From the sequence record NC_052658.1: DNA of 64,000 bases, one strand, 5' to 3'. The notes beneath the pieces were generated by a model. The model worked only from the letters and a program-made list of their open reading frames with translations. It had not been told where the DNA came from and searched no databases. The stretch's first letter is position 1; every line of letters starts with the position of its first letter. Source of the DNA: Escherichia phage nepoznato. The translations under genes were made by a program, and so were the position numbers. Of this stretch, positions 9,443-64,000 are shown piece by piece.

Positions 9443-9471
9443 GACAAGCCCAGGGATCGGGCTTATACTGT
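9443..9471 (+). promoter_or_regulatory. TTGACA-N17-TATACT promoter whose spacer contains hairpin AAGCCC/GGGCTT; promoter versus weak terminator is ambiguous
   Basis: Direct reading. Confidence 0.4.
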
Positions 9472-9690
9472 TTTACATACAGAAGAGGAAGCGCCACCCC
9501 CACGGCGTAAAGGCGGGGCTAACATACCAGGGGCACTGGTTGGAAGGTTGATCGCCGGTAGGCTGGGCGCTATATATTTGTAAAGAAATGTAAAGATAAA
9601 ATAATCGCTTGCTTTCCTGGCTGGATCTGTTATTCTTATTACATGGCGAGGGGACACGGGAGCGCGAGACAAACACCGCCCCTGCGCGTC
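9472..9690 (+). ncRNA. Candidate structured non-coding RNA: GC-rich island with nested complementary segments and no plausible ORF
   Basis: Compositional outlier downstream of the promoter-like element. Confidence 0.25.
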
Positions 9691-9694
9691 ATTC

Positions 9695-9800
9695 TCTAAA
9701 TGAGAATGATTATCATTTACTTTATTAAATAAGAATCAATCTCATTTATAAACCTAAATGCGAATCATTATCATTTGCATTTCCACATGAGAACTCTTCT
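9695..9800. repeat. Four iterated palindromic sites of about 19 bp (AATGATTATCATT; ATGAGAA-CTC-TTCTCAT), Fur-box-like
   Basis: Direct reading; related motifs at 141-160, 455-475, 1014-1045. Confidence 0.5.
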
Positions 9801-9825
9801 CATTCCCATCTGCATAAATTTTTGT

Positions 9826-10030
9826 AAACTTTAAATTTTGCTTTTGTACTTTCATTTTTGTAAAAGCAAAAAAACTTTAAATACTGTGGGCGCGCAAAAT
9901 TTTTAAAATTTTCCTTGACTTTTGAGTTTTGTTTTGTATCTGACATTTTAAGATAATTTTCCTAAACTTTAAATTTTGGTTTTCAACTTTCACTTTTGTA
10001 AATTCTTAAAAAGTTTAAATAATTTGAGGG
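9826..10030. repeat. Two copies of a direct repeat of about 56 bp (AAACTTTAAATTTTG...TTTTGTAAA...TTTAAATA)
   Basis: Copies at about 9826-9885 and 9961-10018. Confidence 0.6.
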
Positions 10031-45792: not shown

Positions 45793-46587
45793 TTGAGCAA
45801 GTTGAACACACTTGATCAATATTACACTAACCCCGCTTATGCGGGGTTCTTATGTGATAAGATCAAAGAAATTTTTGGAGAGGAAGCTAACTACGTAGAA
45901 CCATCTGCGGGAGAAGGGGCTTTCTCTTCTTGTTTTAAAAACATAACTTCTTTTGATATTGACCCTAAGTTTGAAGATTGTATTGAGGCAGATTTTTTAG
46001 CTCAATCTGTTGAGTCTGTTGGCAGTGTAACTGCTTTTGTCGGTAATCCTCCGTTTGGAAAAAATGCTAGTCTTGCCATTAAGTTCTTTAACCATTGTGC
46101 TGAAATGTTGGATAACGAAGGTGGTATTTGTTTTATCTTGCCTCGCACATTTCAAAAAATCTTTTTTGCACACAAACTAAATCCCCACATGCATCTTCTT
46201 TACGAAGAAGAATGTCCAAAAGGATCTTTTATTCTTCATGGAGAACCTTGGGATGTTCCTTGTGTATTCCAGATATGGATTAAACGCAACGAGAAGCGTT
46301 CTCCCGTTGTTTTAGGAGAAAATCGACTATTCGTATTAGGCAACAGTAAAGACTACGACATAGCCGTTAGGAGAGCGGGAGCAAGTGCAGGTAAAGTGTT
46401 ATCAGAAGAGGATTCTTTATCTGAAGCATCTACCTATTTTTTAAAAGCCTTGACTTCTGATCTTAAAACGCGTATCATTGAGGCTTACCCGTTACTTAAA
46501 GCTGAAGCTAGTAAAACTGCGGGAGTAAGAAGTTTAAGTTTAAAAGAACTTCAGTGGGTTCTGGAGAACATTAGAAAGGAGGAATAG
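45793..46587 (+). CDS. DNA N6-adenine (amino) methyltransferase
   Basis: AdoMet motif EPSAGEGAF; catalytic GNPPFG. Confidence 0.7.
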   Translation: MSKLNTLDQYYTNPAYAGFLCDKIKEIFGEEANYVEPSAGEGAFSSCFKNITSFDIDPKFEDCIEADFLAQSVESVGSVTAFVGNPPFGKNASLAIKFFNHCAEMLDNEGGICFILPRTFQKIFFAHKLNPHMHLLYEEECPKGSFILHGEPWDVPCVFQIWIKRNEKRSPVVLGENRLFVLGNSKDYDIAVRRAGASAGKVLSEEDSLSEASTYFLKALTSDLKTRIIEAYPLLKAEASKTAGVRSLSLKELQWVLENIRKEE

Positions 46588-49500
46588 TGAGTAAGTTTAC
46601 ATGGGATATTGAAGCAAACGGATTGTTGAATAATGATACTATTGATTATTTAGCTAGTCCTTATCGTCTCAAAGACACATTTCAAATGCACTGTATTGTC
46701 TTAGAGAACCATGAAACAGGAGAAATAGTAGCTTTCCACGATGGCCCTAAATACATTTTTGATGGTCGTCCTTATGAAGAGTCAGATGATAAATATACAT
46801 ATGTTCTTAAAGAATATGTGGCGCAAGATTACACACATTTTCAACTAAAAGATTTCCCAGATTTTATTAATCATGAAGGTTATTTTAAAGACAAGCCTGA
46901 ATATTTGGTTGAAATGGCTGTGGCACACAACGGTATCAACTATGACTGGTTGGCTACAAAACTGTTTTATGGATTAGATTACAGTGTTAAATATAACACG
47001 TGGGGTAAAAGCAAGGTAAAACTTATTGACTCCTTAATTTTGAGTAAAGTGTTAAACCCAGATCGAAAGATTGAGGGCAAATCAGGACATAGTTTGGCAG
47101 CACTTTCTCGAAAGGCAGGCGGGGATGTAAAAATAGATTTCCGTAAAGAGATTCCAGAAGAAGATCGATTTAAGACTTTTGCTGCGGATATGCTTTATTA
47201 CTGTATCTATGATAACAAAGCCAACACAAGTGTATATAATTACCTCATGGAAGAATGGGGTGATTATGATAAATGGGAAGGTCCATTTGAACTTGAACAA
47301 CGTGTAGCAGACATTATCACGCGCCAGGAACACCGTGGGTTTGCTTTTAACATGAAGCAAGCAGAAGAGAACCTTGCTTTTTTGGATGCAGAAATGGAAC
47401 GTCTTCGTTTACTCGTTGAGCCTATTTTGCCACCTAAACCAGCAACAAAAGGTTATCTTAAAGCTTTTATTCCGCCTAAATTGCAAATTAAAAAGAACCT
47501 CGAACCAACTAACCATATGATCAATTTTGCTAAAAAACATGATGGTCATTTGGAAGAGAGGGATGGCGATTGGTGGTTAGTTATGTTGGGGAAAGAGTGG
47601 AAACTGCCAGTTGCAGCAGATGAGCCTTTGTGTGATCCTAATATCCCTGCAACATTGAACGATACAACCCATATTAAAAACTGGCTTGTAGGATTAGGTT
47701 GGGTACCGTCTGAATATAAAGATAAAGACTTGACTCTTAAATCTGGCACCAAGATTAAAAAGAGTGAGGAAGAACTTCAGAAAGGTATTCGAGCTTACAT
47801 TGAGCAAACTCTATCTTCTAATTTTTGTCAGGATCGTTGTGATCATCTGGAGTGCACACCGGAAACCTTGGAAAGGAAGATTCAAGAGCGTATAGCAAAA
47901 GGTAAAGGTCGCGGTCTTAAAGTATTGACTAACCCATGTTTTACCAAAGGTCAGGAAAAAGAAATTTGTCCTAACCTGCAAGCTTTGGGTGAGAAATTTC
48001 CTTATGCTACACAGATTGTAGAATACTTAACGTATAAACACCGTAGGAACTCTATTTTAGGTGGTGGTGCCGATTGGGAAGAAGACGAAGAAGATCAAGA
48101 ATACAACAAAGGTTTCTTGGCAGCAGTTCGTGCAGATGGACGTATACCTACGCCAGCGGCTACATGCGATGCAGCAACCTCTCGTATGAAGCATAGGTCT
48201 GTAGCCAATATTCCTCGTGTTACCTCTTTGTTTGGATGGCAGATGCGTAACCTGTTTGGTGTAGAGGTTCCTAAATACTTCCAGATTGGTTATGACTTTG
48301 ATTCATTAGAGGCGAAGATTGAGTCGCATTATACGTGGAGATATGATAATCCTGATCATGCTTACTGTAATGCACTTCTGTTAGAAAAACCAAACGATGT
48401 GCATACTATGATGGCAAAACATATTACTGATATTATTGGACGTAAGTTTGAACGTGGTCCTGCTAAGAGCGTTAAATACGGTTGTGTACCTGTAGATAAT
48501 ACGGAAGTGTTAACAAGAACGGGTTGGAAGAAACGTAAAGATCTTTTTGTAGGGGATGAAGTTTTATCTTATAATACTCACACCGCTCTTTACGAATATA
48601 CCCCTATTCTTAAGCTGTGGGACTATAACGATGCAGAAGTTGTCTCTCTCGGTAACAAGTGGTTCAAAGTAGAAGTTACTAACGATCATATGTGGATTAA
48701 CGCACAGAGAAAAACTATGCGATCAGATGGTAACAATGTTAAGTATATGCAAGTGGAGCGTAGATCTACAGAGGATTTAAACTCGGAGTCAAACATAATT
48801 GCAGCAGGGCGATCTGGTGTGGTGTCTACTCTAACAGTGGAAGAAGGTCGTTTCTTAGGCTGGCTTCTTTCGGATGGCTACTATAAGTGGTCTGGCAAAG
48901 CCAGAAATAAAGTAATGGGTATTACAGTCACGGTAGATCAAGATGAGAAAAAATTCTTAGAAGAAGCACGTGAGGCTGTGGGAGATATCTTCACATTTGA
49001 CGAGTATGTATCTGGAACGATGCATTCATTACGTCCTAATAAGAGTCAGTTTAGGGAATTTTTGACTAAATGTGGCGTTGAAGTGGGTCAAAATAAGCAC
49101 GAAGTGGACTGGTCTACATTAATTGCTAATCAAGGTCAAGCTGTGTTGGAAGCATTCTTAGAGGCATTCTGGATGGCAGATGGTCATAAGCGTCCAAACG
49201 GCAGTCTTGTTATCCGTCAAAAGAAAGGTAAGATTAGCGACGCTGTTTCTTTGGCTATCAATATGACAGGTAATATTGCGTATGGTTCTGTTCAAAAAGA
49301 TGGCATGTTAACGTTGGCAATCAATAACGGACAAACTATTTCAGGACAGAGGTTGACAAAAGCTTTTTCACGAGTAACAGATGTATTCTGTATCTCAACC
49401 AAGAATGAATCTTTTGTTATGCGTCAGAATGGTTTTATCACGTTGACAGGTAACTGCACGTACGGCGCTCAAGCAGACAAGGTTGCTAAAACAATTGGTA

Positions 49501-50156
49501 GCGATAAATACACAGGGCAACTGGTGTTCGATGCTTTCTGGGAAGCTGCATTCCCACTGGCGCGTCTTAAAGAACGTTTAAACGATTTCTGGGTTAAGAC
49601 TGGTAAACAGTATGTTTTGGGTATTGACGGTCGTAAGGTTCCTACTCGTTCTGCTCACGCGATTCTTAACTCTCTGTTCCAAAGTGGTGGGGTTATCTGT
49701 GCTAAACGTGCAATGGTTATTTATGACGACATGATCGAAGAAGAAGGGCTAAGTGTTGACTTCTTTAAAGATGACTGGAAGAATAAAGACTTCGTGCAAC
49801 AAATGATTGCATATCACGATGAAGCCCAGCTTGAAGTTTCTCGTAGCCTTGTAGAATTTAAATGGTTTTCACCTGAATCATTAGGTTGGAAGAAAGTAGA
49901 CGATCCTGAAGAACAAAAGAAAATTGATAAAGAATGCCTTGCTAAAGTTGAAGAATGGAAGCATAATAAGGAAAAAGAGACAGGGCAAATTTGGGCTAAC
50001 ATTCATGAATCTCCCAAAGGTGGATGGTTTACAGCCTATAGTCGGGCAGGTGAACTTGCTGCTTTAGCTGTTACTAAGGCTGGAGAATTTTACAATCTTA
50101 ATGTTCAGCTTACTGCCGGATATGATGTGGGTAACTCCTGGGCGAGCTGCCATTAG
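46587..50156 (+). CDS. Family A DNA polymerase with 3-prime to 5-prime exonuclease domain, interrupted by an intein
   Basis: Exo I DIEANG; motif A DFDSLEAKI; motif B PAKSVKYG/CTYG split by intein; motif C YHDE. Confidence 0.85.
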   Translation: MSKFTWDIEANGLLNNDTIDYLASPYRLKDTFQMHCIVLENHETGEIVAFHDGPKYIFDGRPYEESDDKYTYVLKEYVAQDYTHFQLKDFPDFINHEGYFKDKPEYLVEMAVAHNGINYDWLATKLFYGLDYSVKYNTWGKSKVKLIDSLILSKVLNPDRKIEGKSGHSLAALSRKAGGDVKIDFRKEIPEEDRFKTFAADMLYYCIYDNKANTSVYNYLMEEWGDYDKWEGPFELEQRVADIITRQEHRGFAFNMKQAEENLAFLDAEMERLRLLVEPILPPKPATKGYLKAFIPPKLQIKKNLEPTNHMINFAKKHDGHLEERDGDWWLVMLGKEWKLPVAADEPLCDPNIPATLNDTTHIKNWLVGLGWVPSEYKDKDLTLKSGTKIKKSEEELQKGIRAYIEQTLSSNFCQDRCDHLECTPETLERKIQERIAKGKGRGLKVLTNPCFTKGQEKEICPNLQALGEKFPYATQIVEYLTYKHRRNSILGGGADWEEDEEDQEYNKGFLAAVRADGRIPTPAATCDAATSRMKHRSVANIPRVTSLFGWQMRNLFGVEVPKYFQIGYDFDSLEAKIESHYTWRYDNPDHAYCNALLLEKPNDVHTMMAKHITDIIGRKFERGPAKSVKYGCVPVDNTEVLTRTGWKKRKDLFVGDEVLSYNTHTALYEYTPILKLWDYNDAEVVSLGNKWFKVEVTNDHMWINAQRKTMRSDGNNVKYMQVERRSTEDLNSESNIIAAGRSGVVSTLTVEEGRFLGWLLSDGYYKWSGKARNKVMGITVTVDQDEKKFLEEAREAVGDIFTFDEYVSGTMHSLRPNKSQFREFLTKCGVEVGQNKHEVDWSTLIANQGQAVLEAFLEAFWMADGHKRPNGSLVIRQKKGKISDAVSLAINMTGNIAYGSVQKDGMLTLAINNGQTISGQRLTKAFSRVTDVFCISTKNESFVMRQNGFITLTGNCTYGAQADKVAKTIGSDKYTGQLVFDAFWEAAFPLARLKERLNDFWVKTGKQYVLGIDGRKVPTRSAHAILNSLFQSGGVICAKRAMVIYDDMIEEEGLSVDFFKDDWKNKDFVQQMIAYHDEAQLEVSRSLVEFKWFSPESLGWKKVDDPEEQKKIDKECLAKVEEWKHNKEKETGQIWANIHESPKGGWFTAYSRAGELAALAVTKAGEFYNLNVQLTAGYDVGNSWASCH
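48483..49454 (+). mobile_element. Intein (about 324 aa) with LAGLIDADG homing endonuclease domain, in polymerase motif B
   Basis: Starts CVPVDNTEVLT; LGWLLSDGY and LEAFWMADGH blocks; ends TLTGN before Cys; coordinates approximate. Confidence 0.7.
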
Positions 50157-52720: not shown

Positions 52721-53148
52721 TCAGTAAGTTATGCTCGTGTTGTGGGGCTGAAAAGCCCCTCAACATGTTCCAAGTAAGGAAGGCTTCTAAAGATGGCTAT
52801 ACGGCATCCTGTAAAGCTTGCTTAAAAGAACGTGACCGTATACGAGATCAAGACCCTAATCGTAAAGCAGCAAAAGAAAAGTATGTAAAGGGAAAAGGAA
52901 AGGATAAAGCAGACGCGGCTAAAAAACGTTGGCAAGAAAAGAATCCCAAGAAGCGTAGTGTTCACGTTTTAGTTGGCAACGCACTCCGAGATGGAAAGTT
53001 AGTAAAACAACCTTGCCAAGTGTGTGGGTCTGTTGATGTTCATGCTCATCATTGTGATTATGATAAACCGTTAGATGTTCTATGGCTGTGTCCTCTGCAC
53101 CATGAAGCTTGGCATCAAGAACATGGGGAAGGGTTGAACGCTGAATAA
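52717..53148 (+). CDS. HNH endonuclease with N-terminal zinc ribbon; probable TTG start
   Basis: CQVCGS...HAHHCDY...LWLCPLHHEAWH. Confidence 0.65.
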   Translation: MISKLCSCCGAEKPLNMFQVRKASKDGYTASCKACLKERDRIRDQDPNRKAAKEKYVKGKGKDKADAAKKRWQEKNPKKRSVHVLVGNALRDGKLVKQPCQVCGSVDVHAHHCDYDKPLDVLWLCPLHHEAWHQEHGEGLNAE

Positions 53149-53182
53149 AAGAAAGGAGCCAAATGGCTCCTTTTCTTATTTA
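53147..53182. terminator. Bidirectional terminator GGAGCC-AAAT-GGCTCC between convergent genes
   Basis: T-rich flanks on both strands. Confidence 0.7.
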
Positions 53183-55848
53183 TAATTGGAAGGAATGTTG
53201 TTATAATCAGAAAGTTTTGTGCAATACCTGAATAGGTAACTATTAGCTACTCCGCCTAATGTATTTGTTAATGTTGTTCCTGTTCCTGTAAGATTTGTGC
53301 ATCCACTAAAGAAAGAAGATAATGCTCCACGTTTACCACAAACAGTTAACCCTGGGTTGTCATTAAAGATCTTATTAAAATCTGTAAGTCCTAAACAACC
53401 TTGGAATGTAGCTGTTAAAGAGGTCACTTTCGTTGGAATATTATCAAACATTCCTGCTGGAACTTCTGCAAGAGAGGTGCAATCTTTAAAGGTGTAAGAA
53501 TATCTTGTAACTTTTGACAGATTCTTAAATAAATCTGAAGGAATAGATGTTAAAGATGTACAACCTTCAAACGTGCTTGACATTGTTGTCATTGAAGGAA
53601 ATAAAGCATCACTGAATAATCCTTCAGGGATAGCTGTCAAACTTGTGCAGCCAGAGAAGATACCGCTTATAGATGTTCCGGTGTAAGATGTGTTACTAAA
53701 ACAATCAGAAGTTATTCGTCTTAAGTTAGCACAACCTTTTAAGAATTGTGAGGCTGGGCTTGTAGAATAACTAATTCTATTACCGCCCCAAAGTTCTAAA
53801 AGACTTTGGTTTGCTTCCATAGACACTTCCACACTATTAACTACGGAAGCACTTGCAAATTCAATAGCCAGTCTGTATTCTCCTGCTGGATAACTATCCA
53901 CTGTAGAGAAAGCTTTGTTTCTAAATATTACCTTACTTGAAGGAACTACAACGTCATCCACCTTAACTACAAAGTTAGCTGGTGCGACAGTACCCGATAA
54001 AGTTGGGAACGTAATCGCCCCATCTGCCGAGTGGTTGAAATATCCGTTTAGAACCGTTAAACTACTACTCGGAGATGGAGCTAACTCCTTTCCCGCAACA
54101 GCGTTCACCGTTAAATAAGAACTATCAGAAGCGGTAACAACACCTTGATACGTAGCTGTGCAACCAATCCTACAACCACCATCACCAACACCAGTTATTA
54201 CACCAGTTGTAGGATCTACTGTAGCAACATTAGGATCTGTAGTTGTATACTCAACAACCATACCAGGTAAGCTTGCTGCTCCTGTTGGCGTTATTTCTGC
54301 TACTATTGTTTGTGTTGTTCCTACATCCATCGCAGATAAGCTAGGGGTGTAAACGCTCAATGTTGAAGCATATCCTCTAGAGGTATCTGATAAAGTTGTT
54401 CCTTCAGCGTTTAAGGCTGTCATACCTGCATCAAAACCACCTTCTGCTTGGAAAGTCATTAAGCCAGTAGATGATATTGTCATGTTTGCAGGGGCAGAAG
54501 AAGTGTATTTAATATTGAAAAGTTTACCTCCTTCTGGGCTAACAGAATGTGTCAACTGTTTAGTTCCACCTACAATACAAATTCCTAAAGAATCTGTAGT
54601 TAAGCTAGTTGCCAGCACATCACCCGTAATCACGGAGCTTGCTATTGGTGTGAATTTATTATAGTTTAGACCACTATTGAACAGATATGACGCTTTCCCA
54701 TCTTTCCAAATACCGGAATAATACATATCTCCATTATAAACGAAAAAGGTTCCTTGATAACCTAATTGGTTAGTAACATCCATATTCAGCGTATGAACGC
54801 TTGTGAGCTTGTTTATATCCCAGGCACCCACTCCTTCAGGTTTAACTGGTTTTCCCACTTGGAGTGGATCTCCGCTCGCAGAATCATACCCCAAACCTAA
54901 GTTTGCCGTATAGTTCTTACCAATAGCCCACAAGGAATTATTAATCCCAACGAAAAAAGAGTGGCGGCTTGGTGGAAACTTCCATGTTGAGAAACCTGCT
55001 GCAAAGGTATCCAGTTTAGTGTAGGTTGTTTCTGTATTAGACCTAACATATAAGTAGTTTACTGTACCCGTGCCGCCGGAGGTATCTCCTACAACTATTG
55101 TCTGGGAAACTGTATTGATGTAATCTTTGACATACACTGTTTCAGTAGCGGATATTTTGGCATTGACAAAAGCTGTTGTTGTGTTATTATTACCTGCTAA
55201 ACCTTTACTAGCTCCACAAACACGCAAGGTTCCCACATTGTTGACATAAGAGCATTGGTTGTAGCCTGCATCAAAAGCAACTGCTGCACTTGTTATCTGA
55301 CGAGGAGTAGAAACTTCGTTAGTAGTACTTGCACCTAAACTGCCTACTGTGTTTTGACCTGATCCATAAAGAACACCACTATTCATTAACCAGAGAGTGT
55401 TGTTATATCCTCCCTTAACCTCTTTAAGATTGGCTAAAGAGATAGTCCCTGTTATTACAGATGGAAAGCTGGTCCAAGTAGTTACACATGCATCCATACC
55501 ACCTGCTGCTATAGATCCTACCAACCCTGCTGTCAATCCTGAATATTGCCATCCCCCACTGTTAGTTTTAATAACAAAACAACGATCTGCGGTAAACACA
55601 TCCGCTACTACAGTAGAAGCTAAGTGGAAATTATTGAATCGTGCACTACGAGTTCCATCTGCAATCTCACCAAAAAGGTTTGCGCCTTGAGTAAACAATC
55701 TACCATCATTAAGCAAAATTGCTAAACTGCTATTAGAATTACCAGCATTATCTGGGTAATCTAAAGTGATTACTTTTTTAACAATACCTGCTGGCAGAGG
55801 AACGACACCAGTGCTGGTCATAATAGTAAATATTGGAATTGGAAACAT
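53176..55848 (-). CDS. Tail fiber/adhesin with RCC1-like repeats, Ig-like region and C-terminal BspA-type leucine-rich repeats
   Basis: Repeats GCTSLTSIPSDLF / GCTSLTAIPEGLF / DCTSLAEVPAGMF. Confidence 0.5.
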   Translation of the reverse strand: MFPIPIFTIMTSTGVVPLPAGIVKKVITLDYPDNAGNSNSSLAILLNDGRLFTQGANLFGEIADGTRSARFNNFHLASTVVADVFTADRCFVIKTNSGGWQYSGLTAGLVGSIAAGGMDACVTTWTSFPSVITGTISLANLKEVKGGYNNTLWLMNSGVLYGSGQNTVGSLGASTTNEVSTPRQITSAAVAFDAGYNQCSYVNNVGTLRVCGASKGLAGNNNTTTAFVNAKISATETVYVKDYINTVSQTIVVGDTSGGTGTVNYLYVRSNTETTYTKLDTFAAGFSTWKFPPSRHSFFVGINNSLWAIGKNYTANLGLGYDSASGDPLQVGKPVKPEGVGAWDINKLTSVHTLNMDVTNQLGYQGTFFVYNGDMYYSGIWKDGKASYLFNSGLNYNKFTPIASSVITGDVLATSLTTDSLGICIVGGTKQLTHSVSPEGGKLFNIKYTSSAPANMTISSTGLMTFQAEGGFDAGMTALNAEGTTLSDTSRGYASTLSVYTPSLSAMDVGTTQTIVAEITPTGAASLPGMVVEYTTTDPNVATVDPTTGVITGVGDGGCRIGCTATYQGVVTASDSSYLTVNAVAGKELAPSPSSSLTVLNGYFNHSADGAITFPTLSGTVAPANFVVKVDDVVVPSSKVIFRNKAFSTVDSYPAGEYRLAIEFASASVVNSVEVSMEANQSLLELWGGNRISYSTSPASQFLKGCANLRRITSDCFSNTSYTGTSISGIFSGCTSLTAIPEGLFSDALFPSMTTMSSTFEGCTSLTSIPSDLFKNLSKVTRYSYTFKDCTSLAEVPAGMFDNIPTKVTSLTATFQGCLGLTDFNKIFNDNPGLTVCGKRGALSSFFSGCTNLTGTGTTLTNTLGGVANSYLFRYCTKLSDYNNIPSNYK

Positions 55849-55865
55849 TTAAACCCTCCATAAAA

Positions 55866-55888
55866 AGAAAGCCCCTTTCGGGGCTTCT
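55866..55888 (-). terminator. Hairpin AAGCCCC-TTTC-GGGGCTT with T-rich tail on minus strand
   Basis: Direct reading. Confidence 0.55.
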
Positions 55889-55889
55889 G

Positions 55890-57914
55890 TTATCGTGTTA
55901 CAACAACCATGTCCACGATATTACCCACACCAGGATACGTTAATTGCAAAATTGTTACTGCGTTGGCAGTAGTTGCTATTTCTGTATCATTCAGTGCTCC
56001 ATAAGACGCATCTAGTGTAACCGTGTGTCCCGTTGTATCTTGAATCAAATAAATCATTGCTGAAAACGCTTTAGGCTTTGTAGAGCCAGTGACACCAGGC
56101 CATGCTCCAACTGTTAAAGCATCGGTTACTGTAACAACATACATATTGGAAGTTCCAGAAGGAGTCCAAGATGCTCCAGAGTTGGCAGTAGTTGTTTCAA
56201 GTTCCATGAAACCTGCTGTAACTCTAGTTGGTGTTATAGCTTCCGTAGGATCTGATCCTGATATTTCAATCCAGTTTCCATCAGAACGACCATAAGTCAA
56301 GCCGTCTTGAGGGGCTTCTGGTATACTAGGAAGAGTTCCTATAAGTGTCCACGTAGAAGAATCTGTTTTCTTAAATACTGCTCCAGTGGTAGTATTGAAG
56401 GCGTAATCATTGATAACACCGTCTCCTGCGACTGGATTAGTTGTTGCTACAAACCACTGTGCGCCGTCCTTACCGTTGGCCCCATCAGTACCGTTGGTTC
56501 CGTTTGTTCCAGGATCACCCTTATCTCCTTTATCCCCTTTTTCACCTTTGTCGCCCTTAATACTTCCCATGTCAACAAAAGATGCGGAATTGGTGTCTTG
56601 ATCGTAGGTATAGATGTAAAGATTACTGGTATCCTCAGTTAAGTAGGCATCACCATAGTTATTATAAACAGGGAGAGCTTCTCCGTTTGCAACATGACCT
56701 TTAGCTGTAATAGATCTGCCTCCCAAACTGCCTACATTGAGCCAAGTTTGGTTGTCATCAATCCACACATAAAGTTCATTTTTTATGATGTAGGCATCAC
56801 CGACCTCCGCTACAGAGGGTAACTCTGAAACATCTGCCAATTCTCCGTTTACAGAAAGACCTGCACCAACTGGACCTTGGATACCTTGAACACCCTGTTC
56901 ACCTTGTGGACCAGGATCTCCCTTCTCGCCCTTGTCTCCCTTTTCACCTTTTAAAGCAGCAACAAAATCTACTTCTGTCCCTTCATTACCAGCGTCCAGC
57001 CAACTTTGATATGCAGATTTCCCTTCGTCTCCATCTGTTCCATCTAGACCGTCTTTACCTGCCTCACCTTGTGGACCTTGAGGACCAACAATATTACCCA
57101 TGTTGACCCAAGCTGTCCCATTAGAGACATAAAGATTACCATTAATAGAATAAGCTTGGCTTACGTTTTCAGAGTTAGGTTGTGGTAAGTTACTTGTAGA
57201 AGGCAAATCTCCACGGTAATCAAAACCATTAGCGTTGACACCAGGTGCACCCTGTGGACCTGTAGGACCAACGTCTCCTTTATCACCTTTTATAGAGGCA
57301 AGAAAGTCATAAACAGATCCTGTATTACCATCTGCCAACCATACCTCGTAAGCTGATTTCCCTTCTGGTCCAAGAGAAGAAATAAGTTTCCAAACAGAAC
57401 CGTCCCAAGCGTAAATCACATCACCTACGATATAACCATCCCCTGCAACGTTACCTGTAGATGGTAGTTCACTAGTGCTTGCTAATGATCCTTTAATATT
57501 AAGTTGAGCACCAGTATCCCCTTTCAAAGAAGCAAGCCATTGTGCTTCTGTTCCAACAAAACCATTATCAAGTGCGATCTGATAAGCCGATTTACCAGCT
57601 TCAGGTATTGCTTCTGACAAATCATCGATCTGTTGTTGCACTGCCGTAAACTTGGCATTGATAATTGCTATATCATCAGCAGTCCCAACACTTTGCCATG
57701 CAAGGGAAGAAATACCACCTGTGGTGGCTGGCGTAGAGTTTGCTGGAACTACTTTAGGAAAAGTTCCTTTCCATTGGTAATAATTCCCTTCTGCCGCTAA
57801 CAGCAAAACTTCACGGGAATTACGTAATGTAAAACCTGCCTCAAAACTGCGACGTTTTCGATAAGTAGCTTCTACCAGATCGGCTATCGCACTATTAGGT
57901 CTTGTTAAATTCAT
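55890..57914 (-). CDS. Tail fiber protein with collagen-like G-X-Y segments
   Basis: Runs such as GDKGEKGDKGDKGDPGTNGTNGTDGANGKDG. Confidence 0.6.
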   Translation of the reverse strand: MNLTRPNSAIADLVEATYRKRRSFEAGFTLRNSREVLLLAAEGNYYQWKGTFPKVVPANSTPATTGGISSLAWQSVGTADDIAIINAKFTAVQQQIDDLSEAIPEAGKSAYQIALDNGFVGTEAQWLASLKGDTGAQLNIKGSLASTSELPSTGNVAGDGYIVGDVIYAWDGSVWKLISSLGPEGKSAYEVWLADGNTGSVYDFLASIKGDKGDVGPTGPQGAPGVNANGFDYRGDLPSTSNLPQPNSENVSQAYSINGNLYVSNGTAWVNMGNIVGPQGPQGEAGKDGLDGTDGDEGKSAYQSWLDAGNEGTEVDFVAALKGEKGDKGEKGDPGPQGEQGVQGIQGPVGAGLSVNGELADVSELPSVAEVGDAYIIKNELYVWIDDNQTWLNVGSLGGRSITAKGHVANGEALPVYNNYGDAYLTEDTSNLYIYTYDQDTNSASFVDMGSIKGDKGEKGDKGDKGDPGTNGTNGTDGANGKDGAQWFVATTNPVAGDGVINDYAFNTTTGAVFKKTDSSTWTLIGTLPSIPEAPQDGLTYGRSDGNWIEISGSDPTEAITPTRVTAGFMELETTTANSGASWTPSGTSNMYVVTVTDALTVGAWPGVTGSTKPKAFSAMIYLIQDTTGHTVTLDASYGALNDTEIATTANAVTILQLTYPGVGNIVDMVVVTR

Positions 57915-57978
57915 TTATCTCTCCTATTATTAGACCATTCTATTGGAAGAAGAGGGGGAATCCCCCTCTCTATTTCCA

Positions 57979-60900
57979 TTAGGTTGTTGGCACATCTACC
58001 ACTGGTGTTGGGCGAATAACCGCAGTATTACCTACAGAAACATTACTAGAATCGTTAGGTATGGTTTTGATTCTAACTCCAGCACTCGTAGGCGTTACAA
58101 TTGGATCTGCAATGTCTATTTTAACTGGGTTAGTCCACGTATCATTATCTTGATAAGGTGCACGAGTGATAACTGTGTCCAAATCTGCTCCACCTACACC
58201 AGCACCAGGAATACGGATACGTGTTCCTGCTGACAGAGGATAGTGATACAACCAAGAAGCGTTTGTTGCTGTCCCATTAGGAGTCAAGTTCTGGGTCAGG
58301 AAGGTATCTCCTGCTTGTGTAGCTCGAATACCGAAAGCTGGGATATCTGGAATGTATGCCCCACTTGTTGTTACAAGGAAGAACGTATTATCCGCTTTGA
58401 CTATCATATCCCCTTTGTCAAACTCCTTCCCTGTTGGGAAATGCATCCCATCAATGTTTCGGCTAGGGTTAGGCTCTAAGTAATAAACTTTGCCAGTTGT
58501 CCCTACAATAGCTCCAATACCACCTGCGATATTGGTATACATATTAGCTTCAACATTACAGTTGACACGATGAATATCCGAGTAACGGCAACGGCTCCAC
58601 TGTGGACGACCAGTAACCATCGTCTTGCCATCTGGGTAACAGTTTACGTTAACCATCTCAAGAACAGATTTTTCTCTACGGAAGAATCCATCATAAAATG
58701 TCCCTGGACCAGATTCAGGTTGACCAACACAATCGAAGATATTACAGGTGATGTTAGACATTGAAAGCCAAGAAGCTATACCGAACAACTGCAATGCGGC
58801 GCAACGAATATTTTCAAAGCTAACTCTGTTTTCATAACCTGGCCCAGCGGAAACTCCCGCAAAAACACGCCCAGTTTTGGTGTGAATGTTACGAACAGAA
58901 TAGTTAAAGCATGGATTTGAAGGTCTACCCTGTGCCGGAACTACCGGATTACCCTCTTCGTCCAGAACTGCGTTAGTTCCCCACTCCAAATAAATCATAC
59001 GGATATTACTTGCAAGTGTGCTACCGTCTGTTTTAGGCTCTCCATAAACACCATCAATCGTAAAGTCTTTACTTCCATACATTACAACTGCGCCAGTTGC
59101 CAAACCTGTCCCAACAGATACAGTTTGGTCTGGATCGCCATGAATGTTTTCGATAGAGATATTACGACCAACTTCTACGTGGACAATCTGACGACAACGT
59201 TTTGCAAAAACGTTACGAATTGTAATATTCTTGCAATATTGATCATCAGGAATTCCGTAACCATATGGTCCTTTACCAGCTACACCAATACCGATACCCC
59301 AGTTGGACAGAGGAATAGGAGCGTTAGTCCCATCGATATTAGACAGGTAAATATTCTCAATCACACAACCATCATCATAATGTTTATTGATGACGTTCAG
59401 TTCTATTGCATCACCTTGCATGTCCATGAAGGTAAGGTTACGGAAGACACCGCGTGTTACTGGTTCCCCTGTTCCTTGTTGAAGGATGCCATATAACCCG
59501 TTTTTAAAAGTACAATTATCAATTTCAAAAGTACCTGATATTGGGTTGCCTTGGAATACCAAGCTACCAACTTGACCTGCGCGAGGAGCACCGTCCCACA
59601 AACAATCGAACATGCGCACAGCACCACCCCAATACATAACACGAGAGTTACGGAAAGTTGTGCCTTCTACTGTAGCATTTTGCACACGATAGTCACGTTG
59701 ACCACGGAACACACCCCCACGCAAAGTGATACCTTGAATATCAAAAGAGCTTGTCGTGAAAGTCATATCGCAACCGTAAGCATCGAGAATCTTGCTTTTC
59801 GAAGCTTTTGCTGCTAACAGTGCCGCCTGGAAAGCTGCTTCTGGTGTGGTATAGGTAGTTGTATTGTTAGCAAATTCGGACAAGTAGACAACATCGAATA
59901 AATCGTTGTATGTTCCACCACGAGGGGTTAACAGTCCTTCTGTATTGGTCAGAACCCATGCATTTGGACCTAATCCACCGCTTGTCTCCAATGTATCAGA
60001 GGCCAAAATACTTTTTGGTAAACTTCCAGCCCAACGATAACGACCAGCACCACGTCCAATCGTCTGATTTTTAGCTGTCAGAGTTACGTTATTACCAAAG
60101 CTTGTAGGCAAATGAACAAACTGTCCACGTTCAACAGCCAGTGCAGAAAGATCTACGGACCCCCCAGAATAAGTCATTACTCCAGAAACAGATAAGGATG
60201 TTAAAGTTCCTGTGATGTTAGGAGGTAATGTGTAGGAAGACTGTGCTACTGGATCATACAGAGCTTTAATCCCTGTTAACGATTGACCTGCTGTTGCGTA
60301 AGCCACCTCATCATCTAACAAACCATATTTACGAGCAATAGTTTGCAGAGGGACTTTATCCATGCTTTCTGTTAGTTCTTCCGTTTTTGTTTCTAAACTA
60401 ACAAGACGGTTCTCTAGATTAGGATCTGTATCTGCTGAAGCTACGATTTTACCAATATAAGCAAAAAGCTTGTTTGGTAGTCCTGTTGCAGGATCGTGTC
60501 CCAAAGGTTCAGATAAAATGATTTTACTATCTTCTATGCGGAAAGCTTCTCCCAGAACCTGAATAACACCATTGATTGTAACAATAGCACTATCAAAGAT
60601 GTAGGGAGGACTGATTACTGTTTCATAACCAGTTGCACCAGAATATACCCAAGGGGTGACTTCTGTTGCTAGTTGTTCTGTCTTCAGTCCCCACAATACC
60701 CAGTTGTTATCTCCTACTGGAGTCCCTTGCATAGGAATTGGGTTTACCAGCGTAGCATTAGGCGCATAGTAATAACCACTCAACACTCCGTTCTGGAAAT
60801 AACGAAGTTGGTTAAAAACTGTTTCGTTTGTGCCTTGCGCCCAATCTAATGGACTTTTAAAGAAAAAGTTGTCAACAAGGGCTTTTCTCAGGGTTGGTAT

Positions 60901-61032
60901 CAACCCTGATTCTGTTTCAATACTCTCTGTAGCACTTCCATTAATAACATCATGGAGTTGGTTAGACGAGAAAATAACCAGATCTACGCCCTGTTCGAGA
61001 GACGTTGCTGGATATGTTGGGAATGTTGCCAT
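57979..61032 (-). CDS. Tailspike with right-handed beta-helix (pectate-lyase-like), putative polysaccharide depolymerase
   Basis: Asn/Gly-rich rungs NCTFKNG, NLTFMDMQGDAIEL, ITIRNVFAKRCRQIV, NISIENIHGD. Confidence 0.6.
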   Translation of the reverse strand: MATFPTYPATSLEQGVDLVIFSSNQLHDVINGSATESIETESGLIPTLRKALVDNFFFKSPLDWAQGTNETVFNQLRYFQNGVLSGYYYAPNATLVNPIPMQGTPVGDNNWVLWGLKTEQLATEVTPWVYSGATGYETVISPPYIFDSAIVTINGVIQVLGEAFRIEDSKIILSEPLGHDPATGLPNKLFAYIGKIVASADTDPNLENRLVSLETKTEELTESMDKVPLQTIARKYGLLDDEVAYATAGQSLTGIKALYDPVAQSSYTLPPNITGTLTSLSVSGVMTYSGGSVDLSALAVERGQFVHLPTSFGNNVTLTAKNQTIGRGAGRYRWAGSLPKSILASDTLETSGGLGPNAWVLTNTEGLLTPRGGTYNDLFDVVYLSEFANNTTTYTTPEAAFQAALLAAKASKSKILDAYGCDMTFTTSSFDIQGITLRGGVFRGQRDYRVQNATVEGTTFRNSRVMYWGGAVRMFDCLWDGAPRAGQVGSLVFQGNPISGTFEIDNCTFKNGLYGILQQGTGEPVTRGVFRNLTFMDMQGDAIELNVINKHYDDGCVIENIYLSNIDGTNAPIPLSNWGIGIGVAGKGPYGYGIPDDQYCKNITIRNVFAKRCRQIVHVEVGRNISIENIHGDPDQTVSVGTGLATGAVVMYGSKDFTIDGVYGEPKTDGSTLASNIRMIYLEWGTNAVLDEEGNPVVPAQGRPSNPCFNYSVRNIHTKTGRVFAGVSAGPGYENRVSFENIRCAALQLFGIASWLSMSNITCNIFDCVGQPESGPGTFYDGFFRREKSVLEMVNVNCYPDGKTMVTGRPQWSRCRYSDIHRVNCNVEANMYTNIAGGIGAIVGTTGKVYYLEPNPSRNIDGMHFPTGKEFDKGDMIVKADNTFFLVTTSGAYIPDIPAFGIRATQAGDTFLTQNLTPNGTATNASWLYHYPLSAGTRIRIPGAGVGGADLDTVITRAPYQDNDTWTNPVKIDIADPIVTPTSAGVRIKTIPNDSSNVSVGNTAVIRPTPVVDVPTT

Positions 61033-61035
61033 TAA

Positions 61036-61371
61036 TTACCCCTTATTCTGTGTACGTTTAACTATGTCATCTAGCATCATTTGGATAGTCGCATTCTTGA
61101 GGTCCATAATCTTTTCAATCTTTTGCTCAAGAGTGTTATTATTTGCCATTAATGTAGAGTTAATTTGATTTAGCATCTGGGTAAGTTCGGCTTTAGTTGC
61201 ATAAGTTGATTCAACAAAGACCAACTTCTTCTCTAGCTCTCGACTTTTCTCCTCCATTTCCTCAAGATCAGAGCCGAATTTATCCATTTTTTGTTTGAAA
61301 AAGAACCAGATGACTCCGATTAAAGGGATAATTGCATCCTTAGCAAGTCCCCATGCTTCTTGAAATTCCAT
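61036..61371 (-). CDS. Small protein with one N-terminal TM helix and coiled coil (111 aa)
   Basis: IIPLIGVIWFFF then heptad-like region. Confidence 0.5.
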   Translation of the reverse strand: MEFQEAWGLAKDAIIPLIGVIWFFFKQKMDKFGSDLEEMEEKSRELEKKLVFVESTYATKAELTQMLNQINSTLMANNNTLEQKIEKIMDLKNATIQMMLDDIVKRTQNKG

Positions 61372-61381
61372 ACTGTATCCC

Positions 61382-61921
61382 TTACTGAGTAGGTCTATCA
61401 GGCCACTGAATGTTGTTCAAGTCTTTCAGATCTAATAGAACTAAAGATGCTCGATATAATTTAACAGCTTTTAACCATTTTTCTTGTGTCTCTGACAAAC
61501 CTTGTAACTCTTGCAAATCTGTCAAAGCACCTATTTGGTTTCCAGCCCACGTTAATTCTGTCTCTAAGGTAGTATCCACATCTTCTTGTGTCCAAGTGTT
61601 GTGTTTTTCAAAAGTTATTCCATTATATCTCCATTGTCTTGGATATTCAGTCATACCTTTTGGAACATTATCTGTAACAACAACACGCATATTGTGGGGG
61701 AATAATCCTGCTGCGTCCTCCCCTACACCTAAAACTAAATTATCAGTGTTTAAGCTAACAAAATATGCATCAGGATACTTAGCATCCAACTCTTTCGACA
61801 AATCATACCAATCCCTGCCAGACGAATCCTTTAGAAATCCTACTCCTAAACTAATTAAAAAGAGCGTATCCTCATTAGGTTCTGGAGTATATAGTTCAAA
61901 ACCATCGTAAACAATATTCAT
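61382..61921 (-). CDS. tfa: Tail fiber assembly protein (lambda Tfa-type chaperone)
   Basis: C-terminus WLKAVKLYRASLVLLDLKDLNNIQWPDRP matches recalled Tfa end W-KYRV-LNRVD...IEWP. Confidence 0.7.
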   Translation of the reverse strand: MNIVYDGFELYTPEPNEDTLFLISLGVGFLKDSSGRDWYDLSKELDAKYPDAYFVSLNTDNLVLGVGEDAAGLFPHNMRVVVTDNVPKGMTEYPRQWRYNGITFEKHNTWTQEDVDTTLETELTWAGNQIGALTDLQELQGLSETQEKWLKAVKLYRASLVLLDLKDLNNIQWPDRPTQ

Positions 61922-61936
61922 TATTTATTCTCCTAC

Positions 61937-62968
61937 TTAATAGCTTACTGTTACCCATCCACCATTCACATAATACTGCAATGGCCCAGACCAATAAGAA
62001 GCACCACGAAGTTCTTTCTTATTACCGAAAGCCCAACCAGTCATAACGTGACCAGCATAATAAGGTGACTCTGATACACCTAATTGGATACGTCCGTTAA
62101 TACGAACTGCTGTTACACGGGCATTAACTTGATTTTGAAGTGAGTTTATTTGATTTTGTAAGCTGTTCTGCAAATTATCAATACGAGAATTTAAATTGCT
62201 GTTAACGTTATTCAAATTATTTTGAACACTGTTAATATTTGTTTGTAATGTGTTTTGAAGAGAGCTTAAACGAGAGTTCAAATAATCCAAGCGAACCAAG
62301 GCATTTCCGTTAGAAGTGTCTTGTCCATTGTTTGATCTTGGATTATCTATTAGAACATAACCTGCATCATATAAACGAACACCTGCGGCTACACCACCTG
62401 TGCTAGGATTTCTACGATAAATATAAAGTTGACCTCCACTTTGATATTCCGCAGAAATCTCTCCGTTAGTTTGTCCTGCAAAGTTCTTGAAAAACAGGGT
62501 TGCAGGATCTGTTGTGGAAGTACCGTTAACATAAACATCACCACCATAAATAGCACCACCTGCATCACGTTTTACCAACACGTTTGGTGTTACTATTGAA
62601 CTAGTAGCATCTGTAATGTTTGCCGATAAGTGATTATGACTGTTATCTTGAACTTGGATAGATAAAGTAACTTCTTTATTACCATTCCAAGTAGCCTCAC
62701 CAGTAGCATCACCTGCCATTGTAATCTTAGTTCCAACTAAAGGCAAGTAAGTATTAGGTAAAGTTGGAATAAAGTCATCCACCAAATAACGAATCCATAA
62801 ACCGATATTATTAAGAATCCAGTTCATTTCTTCGCAAGTCATGATTTGACCATAATCCATACCAACTGTGCGGATGGTTTCTTTAGGTCTAATTTTGTTT
62901 GTGTTTAAAGTTCCTGGGAGCGTTACAGTTTGTGTAGCCCAGTCAGGATAATATATTGGCTTCGCCAT
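61937..62968 (-). CDS. Tail fiber protein with Asn/Gln-rich coiled-coil repeats
   Basis: NSRLSSLQNTLQTNINSVQNNLNNVNSNLNSRIDNLQNSLQNQINSLQNQVN; followed by tfa. Confidence 0.65.
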   Translation of the reverse strand: MAKPIYYPDWATQTVTLPGTLNTNKIRPKETIRTVGMDYGQIMTCEEMNWILNNIGLWIRYLVDDFIPTLPNTYLPLVGTKITMAGDATGEATWNGNKEVTLSIQVQDNSHNHLSANITDATSSIVTPNVLVKRDAGGAIYGGDVYVNGTSTTDPATLFFKNFAGQTNGEISAEYQSGGQLYIYRRNPSTGGVAAGVRLYDAGYVLIDNPRSNNGQDTSNGNALVRLDYLNSRLSSLQNTLQTNINSVQNNLNNVNSNLNSRIDNLQNSLQNQINSLQNQVNARVTAVRINGRIQLGVSESPYYAGHVMTGWAFGNKKELRGASYWSGPLQYYVNGGWVTVSY

Positions 62969-62977
62969 TTAAACTCC

Positions 62978-63607
62978 TTAATCTATTTGCTTGAGAAGCG
63001 TACACATGCGTCCTGTTTCATCCCCAGTAGATTCCATGTACAGGGAACCTAAACCACCAATACCATGAGGCGGTTTGGTAGCATAATAAGAACTAAAACC
63101 AAAAGCTGATCCTGCTTTTGCTCCAAGACGGTAGCTGCTAATAATAGGAAAAACACTTAGCAACTGCTCTAAAGCTTGATCAGATTGAAGACACAGGTTG
63201 TAGAAAAACACGTCAAAGGTTTTATTCAAACCTACATAAGTATTAAGCGTTTCACGCTCGGTTCCTGTGAAACGGGCGAAGATATCAATTATGTCACCAC
63301 GAGTCCCCGATGAGGCTACGCGGTAAGCCCTGATTTTTAATATTGTTCTATACTCTTCATCATCAGAGCCATTACGTTCGATCCCCATTTCTTCTCCTAA
63401 GATATCTAGGTATTTGCCTGTGGCTGTGGAGATCAAGCGGTGTTTAGCAAGATAGATCATTGCCTGATCTATCTTTTGCTTTTCACTGGATACGATGTAG
63501 AGGAGCTTGACAATGTTAGGAGAAGATTTAAAATCTTCAATCAGAAGGTTTTTAACGTCTTCATTGATACTGGCCCAAGTTGTTACATGGTCAACACTCA
63601 CTGCCAT
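62978..63607 (-). CDS. Hypothetical structural protein (209 aa)
   Basis: ORF within tail gene block. Confidence 0.45.
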   Translation of the reverse strand: MAVSVDHVTTWASINEDVKNLLIEDFKSSPNIVKLLYIVSSEKQKIDQAMIYLAKHRLISTATGKYLDILGEEMGIERNGSDDEEYRTILKIRAYRVASSGTRGDIIDIFARFTGTERETLNTYVGLNKTFDVFFYNLCLQSDQALEQLLSVFPIISSYRLGAKAGSAFGFSSYYATKPPHGIGGLGSLYMESTGDETGRMCTLLKQID

Positions 63608-63609
63608 TT

Positions 63610-64000
63610 TTACACTCCATACTCGTAAGAAATGTTATCAAGGTCAAAAGAAGGGACAACATTATAAGCAGGAATTATATTATTCTCTGTATATTTACTG
63701 TCATCCTCAGTATTAAGTTTAACATAAACACGAAGAGAAGTCAAGCGTCCAAAAGCAAGTGCTGCATAAATAACACCTTTGATTTGATCGTTCGTTACTG
63801 AAGAACCTAACTCAAAGTAAGCTTGCAGGTTTTGTAAAGCTTCTACGATGTTTTGTTTTTCTGTTCCACTTAAAGTTGTTCCGTTGACAGTTTGATAAAC
63901 AAGTTTTACGGAATACATAGCAGAAGCACCAGGAGAGAAGCGAATAATTTCTTGTCCTCCATCTTCTGTTGTAACTGTTATGTTAGTTGTTCCGTGTGTC
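63610..64000 (-). CDS. Hypothetical structural protein, 5-prime partial (reading frame stays open to the window edge)
   Basis: No in-frame stop upstream of the ORF-track Met; start lies beyond 64000. Confidence 0.5.
   Translation of the reverse strand, partial: THGTTNITVTTEDGGQEIIRFSPGASAMYSVKLVYQTVNGTTLSGTEKQNIVEALQNLQAYFELGSSVTNDQIKGVIYAALAFGRLTSLRVYVKLNTEDDSKYTENNIIPAYNVVPSFDLDNISYEYGV

Follow-up and report, generated by a model that had tools for sequence, protein, structure and literature searches.

A probable phi92-type adsorption module in Escherichia phage nepoznato and the leucine-rich repeat head of its last fibre-operon protein

Results

Organisation of the locus

Our analysis concerns a window of 64,000 nucleotides from Escherichia phage nepoznato (NC_052658.1) and, within it, a block of baseplate and fibre genes at 53176-63607 that a preliminary description had read as four receptor-binding proteins with a lambda-type Tfa chaperone. 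The block is a tight co-directional array of seven complete open reading frames (ORFs) on the minus strand (Table 1). Its limits are exact ORF ends in the ORF list, as that description had placed them, and the GC skew is negative across 54-62 kb, matching minus-strand coding. By sequence, the window belongs to Phapecoctavirus, as a phAPEC8-like Escherichia coli myophage about 97% identical to ECML-183-2 and ukendt; the DNA from 53176 to 63918 is 96-97% identical over its full length to the Phapecoctavirus genomes ECML-183-2, ukendt and tuntematon, and 126 phage records match the locus DNA. The block is already annotated in dozens of GenBank records, and the RefSeq relatives label its genes baseplate protein, tail fibre, tail fibre assembly protein, 'lipoprotein', colanic acid degradation, tail fibre and tail protein. 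The gene order is that of the Stephanstirmvirinae locus, namely Wedge 2, Wedge 1, short fibre, Tfa, small membrane protein, colanidase spike, collagen fibre and convergent terminator. The block is the promoter-distal half of a late baseplate/fibre operon, since three more fibre/spike genes, homologues of phi92 gp141-143, lie in relatives just past the position where the window ends. The earlier reading of the block as an adsorption apparatus was thus right as far as it went, although it took in only the distal half and did not mention two proteins of the block itself, those of 209 and 111 residues.

Table 1. Features of the fibre locus and its borders. Positions refer to the whole window; residue numbers (aa) refer to the protein named.
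Feature	Position	Strand	Basis or remark
Wedge 2 gene, 3' part	63610..64000	-	ukendt gp238 'baseplate wedge subunit' and phi92 gp145 at the same place
Baseplate Wedge 1 protein, 209 aa	62978..63607	-	phi92 gp146 homologue; PDB and Pfam matches
Short tail fibre, 343 aa	61937..62968	-	phi92 gp147 homologue
Short fibre, N-terminal baseplate joint, aa 4-71	62756-62959	-	match to phiTE short fibre
Short fibre, coiled coil, aa 227-288	62105-62290	-	heptad/hendecad spacing
Short fibre, C-terminal tip, ~60 aa	61940-62116	-	
Tail fibre assembly chaperone, 179 aa	61382..61921	-	Caudo_TAP (lambda Tfa, P2 gpG, Mu gpU); Pfam and PHROG
111-aa protein	61036..61371	-	phi92 gp149 homologue; one N-terminal hydrophobic helix, coiled-coil-like remainder
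Colanidase-type tailspike, 1017 aa	57979..61032	-	phi92 gp150 homologue
Tailspike, phiTE long-fibre-type baseplate anchor, aa 11-114	60691-61002	-	
Tailspike, small adaptor-type beta domain, aa ~120-180	60493-60675	-	
Tailspike, tandem TD/Tail_spike_N domains, aa 226-372	59917-60357	-	
Tailspike, right-handed beta-helix enzyme body, aa 426-1000	58033-59757	-	
Collagen-like fibre, 674 aa	55890..57914	-	phi92 gp151 homologue; Pfam, G-X-Y runs
Collagen-like fibre, TD-type Tail_spike_N domain, aa 12-77	57684-57881	-	single, N-terminal
Collagen-like fibre, repeated globular modules alternating with four G-X-Y runs, aa 210-486	56457-57287	-	
Collagen-like fibre, phiTE long-fibre-type C-terminal tip, aa 562-671	55902-56231	-	
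Terminator-like GC hairpin and T-run	55868..55887	-	between the 674-aa and 890-aa genes, 5' of the 890-aa ribosome-binding site
Modular protein 'TfpM1', 890 aa	53176..55848	-	last gene of the late fibre operon
890-aa protein, conserved N-terminal peptide, aa 1-17		-	
890-aa protein, seven-bladed RCC1-like propeller, aa ~20-400	54649-55791	-	
890-aa protein, two Big_2 immunoglobulin-like domains, aa 411-584	54097-54618	-	
890-aa protein, beta-sandwich and seven-repeat TpLRR/BspA-like head, aa 585-890	53179-54096	-	
Bidirectional intrinsic-terminator-like hairpin	53151..53174	both	leftward fibre operon meets rightward replication genes

The tailspike and the collagen-like fibre

The 1017-residue protein is 100% identical to the 'putative colanic acid-degrading protein' of phAPEC8, and its residues 426-1000 match the crystal structure of phi92 gp150 (6e0v_A, E = 1.4e-79), which bears out its earlier description as a beta-helix, depolymerase-like tailspike. 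Identity to phi92 gp150 is 33% in the catalytic body and 75% in the N-terminal anchor. Homology thus makes the protein a predicted trimeric beta-helix tailspike of the phi92 gp150 colanidase family, and the colanic-acid hydrolase activity of gp150 is summarised in a recent study (PMC13450770). The predicted target is colanic acid, a shielding exopolysaccharide, rather than a K capsule, and on this point the capsule dependence suggested at the outset is not fully supported.

The N-terminal third of the tailspike brings together several domains with relatives elsewhere. Residues 226-372 match the tandem N-domains of the CBA120 and G7C spikes (E = 1e-24 to 1e-30; for CBA120 TSP1, TSP3 and TSP4 and G7C gp63.1, E = 1e-26 to 1e-30), and the first ~115 residues match residues 14-120 of the phiTE long tail fibre (9cuy_g, E = 1.4e-19), a match that was missed in the PDB search with the full-length protein and surfaced with the N-terminal 121 residues alone. 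The small domain at residues ~120-180 has no Pfam match; it resembles a 'tail adaptor protein' (7y22_e, E = 2e-4) and the N-terminal region of a K1 depolymerase (E = 0.0016), and its adaptor-type motif at residue 143 is present in the 1017-residue protein and in phi92 gp150, not in rV5 gp28. Two related contigs, L007 and L008, encode a homologue (55% identical) and a 1017-residue counterpart at the same position, respectively, for which the precomputed Pfam domains are phiTE_241_N, Tail_spike_N and WcaM.

The collagen-like fibre is 59% identical to phi92 gp151. Its scores against Tail_spike_N (70.5 bits, E = 1.2e-19) and Collagen (PF01391, 47.9 bits for a cut-off of 27.2, E = 1.2e-12) both lie above the Pfam cut-offs, and its four G-X-Y runs comprise 6, 8, 10 and 11 uninterrupted triplets, in agreement with the name that it had been given. 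Its last ~110 residues match residues 682-790 of the phiTE long fibre (9cuy_g, E = 2.3e-8), and the C-terminus of rV5 gp28 is 50% identical to this tip. As the N-terminal anchor of the long fibre matches the tailspike and its C-terminal tip matches the 674-residue protein, the collagen fibre has a tip without a baseplate anchor. In rV5 gp28 and in a phiTE-like 734-residue fibre, anchor and tip are on one polypeptide. The spike bears the anchor in the window, phi92, L007 and L008, and the collagen fibre bears the tip in all of these except L008, where a 396-residue fusion takes the place of that fibre (see below). The precomputed Pfam domains of a related contig follow the same division, with Tail_spike_N, Collagen and phiTE_241_C on the fibre and phiTE_241_N, Tail_spike_N and WcaM on the spike. 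From these homologies, the long tail fibre that is single in phiTE and rV5 appears here divided between two proteins, the tailspike holding its anchor and the collagen fibre its tip.

The short-fibre unit

The 209-residue protein is 87% identical to phi92 gp146 and matches the PDB entry of that protein (21vq_D, Phi92_gp146, E = 5.9e-121), Wedge 1 of phiTE (9mjn_dh, E = 1.1e-20) and Pfam DUF2612, called Phage_Wedge1 in newer Pfam. The phiTE short fibre binds Wedge 1 (PMC11972413), and the 209-residue homologue is predicted to be a platform on which the short tail fibre docks rather than a protein that binds receptors. The short fibre itself is 72% identical to phi92 gp147, which has been fitted as fibre III in a cryo-EM (cryo-electron microscopy) study (PMC13450770), and falls in PHROG 4465 (E = 9e-113). 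Its N-terminus matches the phiTE short fibre (9cuy_c, E = 6e-8), its middle part is beta-rich, and the 3-4 spacing of hydrophobic residues at positions 227-288 supports the coiled coil for which the protein had been named, though this covers only ~60 of the 343 residues.

The chaperone gene lies directly downstream of the short-fibre gene and co-varies with the fibre tip. Its 179-residue product is 47% identical to phi92 gp148, and its identification as a lambda-type Tfa stands on matches to Caudo_TAP (PF02413, 28.2 bits for a cut-off of 22.1) and PHROG 136 (E = 1.9e-32); a PDB search with this protein gave nothing meaningful. The 111-residue protein that follows is 76% identical to phi92 gp149 and belongs to PHROG 15210; a 112-residue counterpart, 27% identical, also comes after the Tfa gene in a phiTE-like contig. 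The label 'lipoprotein' that RefSeq and PHROGs attach to this protein is not tenable, because its sequence contains no cysteine.

The propeller-Ig-LRR protein

The 890-residue protein is encoded by a gene with a strong ribosome-binding site of its own, 41 bp after the 674-residue gene, and has been listed in a 2025 paper, without domain analysis, as 'TfpM1' and reported as absent from Justusliebigvirus (PMC12695924). Pfam detects RCC1/RLD and Big_2, the latter an immunoglobulin-like (Ig) domain; the RCC1 repeat profile reaches 24.3 bits for a cut-off of 21.7, though no single stretch passes, and WD40_RLD reaches 41.9 bits for a cut-off of 150. The AlphaFold2 model (37 homologues) has a mean predicted local distance difference test (pLDDT) score of 86, with block averages of 81-96 for residues 21-310. 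In Foldseek, the N-terminal 400 residues of the model matched RCC1-type propellers; almost all of the top 30 matches were RCC1-like domains (UVR8, HERC, RPGR, RCC1/RCC2), the best being UVR8 (E = 1.6e-13, template modelling (TM) score 0.68-0.71), followed by HERC2, RPGR and RCC1, with target TM scores of 0.6-0.7 overall.

A separate model of the last 311 residues (pLDDT 88) shows a beta-sandwich followed by a solenoid, and this head contains seven F-x-G-C-x-x-L repeats, 26-32 residues apart. It thus has the fold of a leucine-rich repeat (LRR) solenoid with TpLRR-like repeats. The LRR call was made by structure, because Pfam gave no LRR_5 match in the isolated C-terminus and only a sub-threshold DUF285 score (14.6 bits for a cut-off of 25, E = 0.027). 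The earlier designation of an LRR/RCC1-type protein therefore survives through the Foldseek propeller and the solenoid model, its LRR_5 profile having failed. Proteins 30-40% identical to the head have LRR_5 or DUF285 domains, and one of these homologues is named a BspA-family protein; the predicted fold and these named distant homologues suggest a BspA/TpLRR character. At the other end of the protein, residues 1-17 hardly vary within the family and are common to phi92 gp152. They have low confidence in the monomer model, which is compatible with an anchoring peptide.

LRR heads on phage scaffolds are unusual and have seldom been described, and full-text literature searches gave almost nothing relevant. 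Such a head is not unique, since other phage-like contigs also encode LRR proteins related to it; two distant LRR homologues lie in surroundings that look phage-like without being clear tail modules, and that do not settle how frequent LRR heads on phage fibres are.

The 890-residue gene is preceded by a terminator-like hairpin, GAAGCCCC-GAAA-GGGGCTTT followed by CTTTTT, and at the same place in phAPEC8 a terminator is predicted by ARNold. From its sequence and position, the hairpin may be an attenuator that lowers the dosage of the 890-residue protein.

Exchangeable cassettes and deletion variants

Identity to phAPEC8 is ~96% except in two segments, 61385-62180 and 53145-54097. In the former, the tip of the short fibre after residue ~270 is unrelated to that of phAPEC8 and the Tfa proteins are 26% identical; the tip (C-terminal ~80 residues, 61937-62180) is instead similar to the one in phi92, a Justusliebigvirus, which points to an exchange of tip plus chaperone across genera within the subfamily. 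In the latter segment, the 890-residue protein is ~98% identical to its 891-residue phAPEC8 counterpart through the second Ig domain, beyond which the two are unrelated (C-terminal 305 residues), the phAPEC8 head having neither LRR motif nor Pfam match. Across the family, we found heads of the LRR type seen here, of a type with strong DUF285 matches (E = 1e-42) and of the phAPEC8 type without Pfam match, together with headless forms of ~570 residues; phi92 gp152 is reduced to the N-terminal peptide and the Ig pair.

Two kinds of natural deletion variant retain the LRR head. In L008 (Logan SRR10359460, Phapecoctavirus), an in-frame fusion of 396 residues (8705-9895) replaces the 674- and 890-residue genes. 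It joins residues 1-74 of the collagen fibre, including Tail_spike_N, to residues 567-890 of the 890-residue protein (324 residues, 97% identical), and matches window positions 57671-57914 joined to 53176-54147, with ~3.5 kb deleted and ~10 nt of imperfect microhomology (CAA-GTGTTG) at the junction. This fusion, seen in one assembly, may represent either a true deletion mutant or a chimera created during assembly. In two non-identical, near-complete genomes (P0163 and P0168, contigs of 143 and 147 kb), the 890-residue gene has an in-frame internal deletion, and the resulting 610-residue proteins lack residues ~197-475 (window ~54424-55260), that is, propeller blades 4-7 and the first Ig domain; they are joined at a repeated 'FDAG' motif and keep the N-terminal peptide and the LRR head. 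The LRR head thus stays in frame through both the 396- and the 610-residue variants.

Neighbouring features and database records

Upstream of the block, the Wedge 2 gene encodes 495 residues in relatives, including L007 and L008, and runs off the end of the window, where a 102-residue ORF is merely its C-terminal piece. Terminators are annotated in rV5 and phAPEC8 at the position equivalent to the bidirectional hairpin that closes the block. Between 52.5 and 64 kb we found neither Rfam families nor DNA tandem repeats, and matches to sigma-70-like promoters were at chance level (27 observed, 27.8 expected). Plus-strand ORFs within the block were treated as non-coding, being short (at most 166 residues) and overlapping the long minus-strand genes. 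The 295-residue plus-strand ORF beside the block has no similarity to phi92 gp153 ('tail protein'), and we dropped the idea that the two correspond.

Two side observations concern annotation. The DNA polymerase ORF at 46587-50156 (plus strand) encodes 1189 residues here and in ukendt, is annotated with 865 residues in phAPEC8 and is called with 1110 residues in L008. Several records named 'Campylobacter phage' (e.g. B15, MG065650, host C. jejuni) are 96.5% identical to the locus, and other records so named match rV5-like phages; these host labels seem doubtful, and the phages may be coliphage contaminants of Campylobacter phage stocks.

Discussion

We consider it likely that the block encodes part of the phi92-type multivalent adsorption apparatus of a phAPEC8-like myophage, this being the best explanation of the locus as a whole. 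By close homology, the short fibre is the downward-pointing 'fibre III', joined to the wedge by its N-terminus and matured by the adjacent Tfa-type chaperone. The tailspike would cut colanic acid, allowing the phage to pass this shielding exopolysaccharide, and its ~115-residue anchor suggests that it takes the position of a long tail fibre on the wedge; in the model of the phiTE baseplate, the anchor region of the long fibre is bound by Wedge 2A and by the sheath initiator (PMC11972413). The split of the long fibre over two proteins suggests, without proving it, a branched spike-plus-fibre. Here the 674-residue fibre would dock by its TD-type domain, and probably rides on the N-terminal adaptor region of the tailspike, by analogy with the branched tailspikes of CBA120 and G7C (PMC11414711). 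The 890-residue protein may be a low-dosage accessory adhesin anchored by its N-terminal peptide, whose exchangeable head, here an LRR, would bind a variable surface ligand. Host range could then be tuned by swapping two things, the short-fibre tip with its chaperone and the head of the 890-residue protein.

This proposal agrees with what is known of the subfamily. The BASEL study described three co-expressed lateral fibres, a 'nanosized Swiss army knife', in Vequintavirinae, Phapecoctavirus and phi92-like phages, and considered it unclear which gene encodes which fibre (PMC8594841). Vitt et al. found that the Phapecoctavirus phages AV125 and AV126 had the broadest host range of 28 phages and invoked four fibre sets and two spikes (PMC10844046), and gp143 was inferred to be fibre I in the 2026 cryo-EM study of phi92 (PMC13450770); all three publications treat the assignment of genes to fibres as not yet settled. 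The multivalent, possibly branched apparatus and broad, exopolysaccharide-related host range put forward in the preliminary description are in line with these three reports, and, because a multivalent, broad-host-range apparatus has been published for the subfamily, the finding as first framed was already known. Of its four receptor-binding proteins, the short fibre and the colanidase are backed as receptor-binding or receptor-degrading proteins through their close homologues phi92 gp147 and gp150, and the 674- and 890-residue proteins are candidates. All five of its domain calls survived tests by sequence, homology or structure prediction; the last of these, which it had proposed as a check and which covered the 890-residue protein, gives no ground to reject them. 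Overall, that interpretation was largely right, incomplete and already in the literature.

Several observations weigh against parts of our proposal. Canonical receptor-binding proteins are trimers, whereas RCC1 propellers and LRRs normally occur as monomers. The candidate docking domain of the tailspike matches adaptor proteins weakly (E = 2e-4 to 0.02); no clear XD1-3 (T4 gp10-like) array was detected in the tailspike besides this one adaptor-type domain of ~60 residues, which may be the equivalent of the T4 gp10-like XD domains. The colanidase activity is read from a catalytic body with 33% identity to that of gp150. The places of the 674- and 890-residue proteins in the virion are predictions from sequence and gene order. 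The one mass-spectrometry trace comes from rV5 virions, with three mostly non-tryptic, low-quality peptides of gp27 (3.1% coverage), too weak as proof, and gp27 shares just its N-terminal ~190 residues with the 890-residue protein; a 'genomics and proteomics' paper on E. coli O177 contains no mass spectrometry. Finally, the phi92 cryo-EM study fitted neither gp150 nor gp151 into any fibre density, and likened the gp151 fold to that of a head spike (PMC13450770).

The last of these points bears on whether the proteins branch at all. The four could attach independently, the 674-residue protein belonging to the head, the neck or the whiskers; in the phi92 record the N-terminal domain of gp151 is annotated as a 'potential capsid binding domain', and the docking-domain evidence for a fibre on the spike is weak, as noted above. 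The tip of the 674-residue protein is, however, homologous to the tips of the long fibres on the phiTE and rV5 baseplates, its N-terminus matches the tandem TD domains with which the CBA120 tailspikes and G7C gp63.1 begin or nearly begin, and in every relative that we examined its gene is flanked on both sides by baseplate-fibre genes, so that we regard independent attachment as possible and rather doubtful. We would place no more trust in the most detailed version of our own proposal, and offer it tentatively: that in phi92/phAPEC8-type phages the ancestral long tail fibre was split, the spike keeping the anchor to wedge and sheath initiator and the collagen fibre taking the former tip and docking on the spike as the unassigned branched fibre of the phi92 cryo-EM map, with the 890-residue protein as a non-trimeric adhesin, made up of anchoring peptide, RCC1 propeller, Ig spacer and exchangeable head, that determines host range through a monomeric LRR-ligand interaction and not through a trimeric fibre tip.

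For the 890-residue protein, a different role can be envisaged as a virion decoration, Hoc-like, or as an adhesin for non-host substrates such as mucus or environmental glycans and proteins, rather than as a host-receptor binder that feeds into triggering. Its two Big_2 Ig domains have matches in PHROGs of major tail and head proteins that carry Ig tags, and these two are all that phi92 gp152 keeps of its domains; BspA-family LRR proteins are bacterial surface adhesins, and homologues of the head are so named; the folds are of the monomer type, and the upstream terminator-like hairpin suggests a low, non-stoichiometric dosage. Against this, the heads are exchanged between near-identical phages at a sharp junction, like host-range determinants, a gene of this type is always the last of the baseplate-fibre cluster from phiTE-like phages to rV5, and in one case, L008, the head is fused directly to a tailspike docking domain, observations that make a decorative role seem unlikely to us. 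It is still far less probable that the protein is absent from the virion and acts, for example, as a secreted or intracellular accessory protein encoded at the operon end. We found no virion proteomic evidence for it, its gene sits behind a terminator-like hairpin, and PHROGs place relatives with RCC1 in the category 'DNA, RNA and nucleotide metabolism'; this category is an annotation transferred from eukaryotic RCC1 and not evidence, however, and the gene lies on the fibre-gene strand with its own strong ribosome-binding site close behind the preceding gene. The N-terminal peptide is moreover common to phi92 gp152 and rV5 gp27, of which the latter was weakly detected in virions, and the protein has surface-type Ig and LRR domains and no evident signal peptide at its N-terminus. 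An accessory adhesin remains our preferred reading of this protein, and the propeller-Ig-LRR protein with its swappable tip is the poorly studied part of an otherwise known apparatus.

What we add to the published picture is a module map that assigns the long-fibre anchor to the spike and the tip to the collagen fibre, the two cassettes, and a head that is kept in frame through deletions. These provide testable assignments for host-range engineering and for the phi92 fibre densities that are still unresolved. Their very broad host range has led to the repeated choice of Phapecoctavirus and phi92-like phages for cocktails in therapy and biocontrol. Phapecoctavirus phages have been isolated on a resistant (escape) mutant that overproduces colanic acid, and the colanidase spike is relevant to cocktails against such mucoid, colanic-acid-shielded escape mutants (PMC12753057).

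Comparison with known systems

The bacterial surface proteins of the TpLRR/BspA type carry LRR_5 or DUF285, whereas the head described here fails both profiles and is fused to a phage propeller-Ig scaffold, not to a bacterial surface anchor. In the Vequintavirus rV5, gp27, an Ig-like protein of 1878 residues encoded by the last 'lateral tail fibre' gene, occupies the same terminal position in the cluster as the 890-residue protein, and the two share 40% identity over the N-terminal ~190 residues, which take in the N-terminal peptide and the first propeller blades. Gp27 has twice the length, however, and no detected similarity to the LRR head, so that only the N-termini are comparable; moderate allelic variation of the gp27-type gene was noted in BASEL (PMC8594841). 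The branched tailspike complexes of the Kuttervirus CBA120 (TSP1-4) and of phage G7C (gp63.1/gp66) share TD-type N-domains with the 1017- and 674-residue proteins, and our proposal follows their principle of an anchored spike that bears another binding protein; their passenger is a second beta-helix spike, whereas the passenger proposed here is a collagen-like fibre. The Pectobacterium phage phiTE (PDB 9CUY/9MJN) has homologues of the N-terminal joint of the short fibre, Wedge 1 and both the N-terminal anchor and the C-terminal tip of the long fibre, the last two in one protein, as in rV5, and on two proteins in the window.

One close system of the same genus is phAPEC8, the type of Phapecoctavirus, whose gp174-gp180 have the same architecture, with an identical tailspike, and differ in the two cassettes, one made up of the short-fibre tip and Tfa, the other of the C-terminal 305 residues of the 890/891-residue protein. 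In Justusliebigvirus, phi92 gp145-gp152 are gene-for-gene collinear with the block and the operon likewise ends at a convergent terminator; identities to gp146-gp152 range from 47 to 87%, falling to 33% in the catalytic body of the tailspike. Compared with phi92 gp150, the tailspike of the window has an extra insert of ~230 residues with the tandem TD domains, and where the 202 residues of phi92 gp152 comprise the N-terminal peptide and the Ig pair, the window inserts a seven-bladed propeller between them and appends the beta-sandwich and the LRR head.

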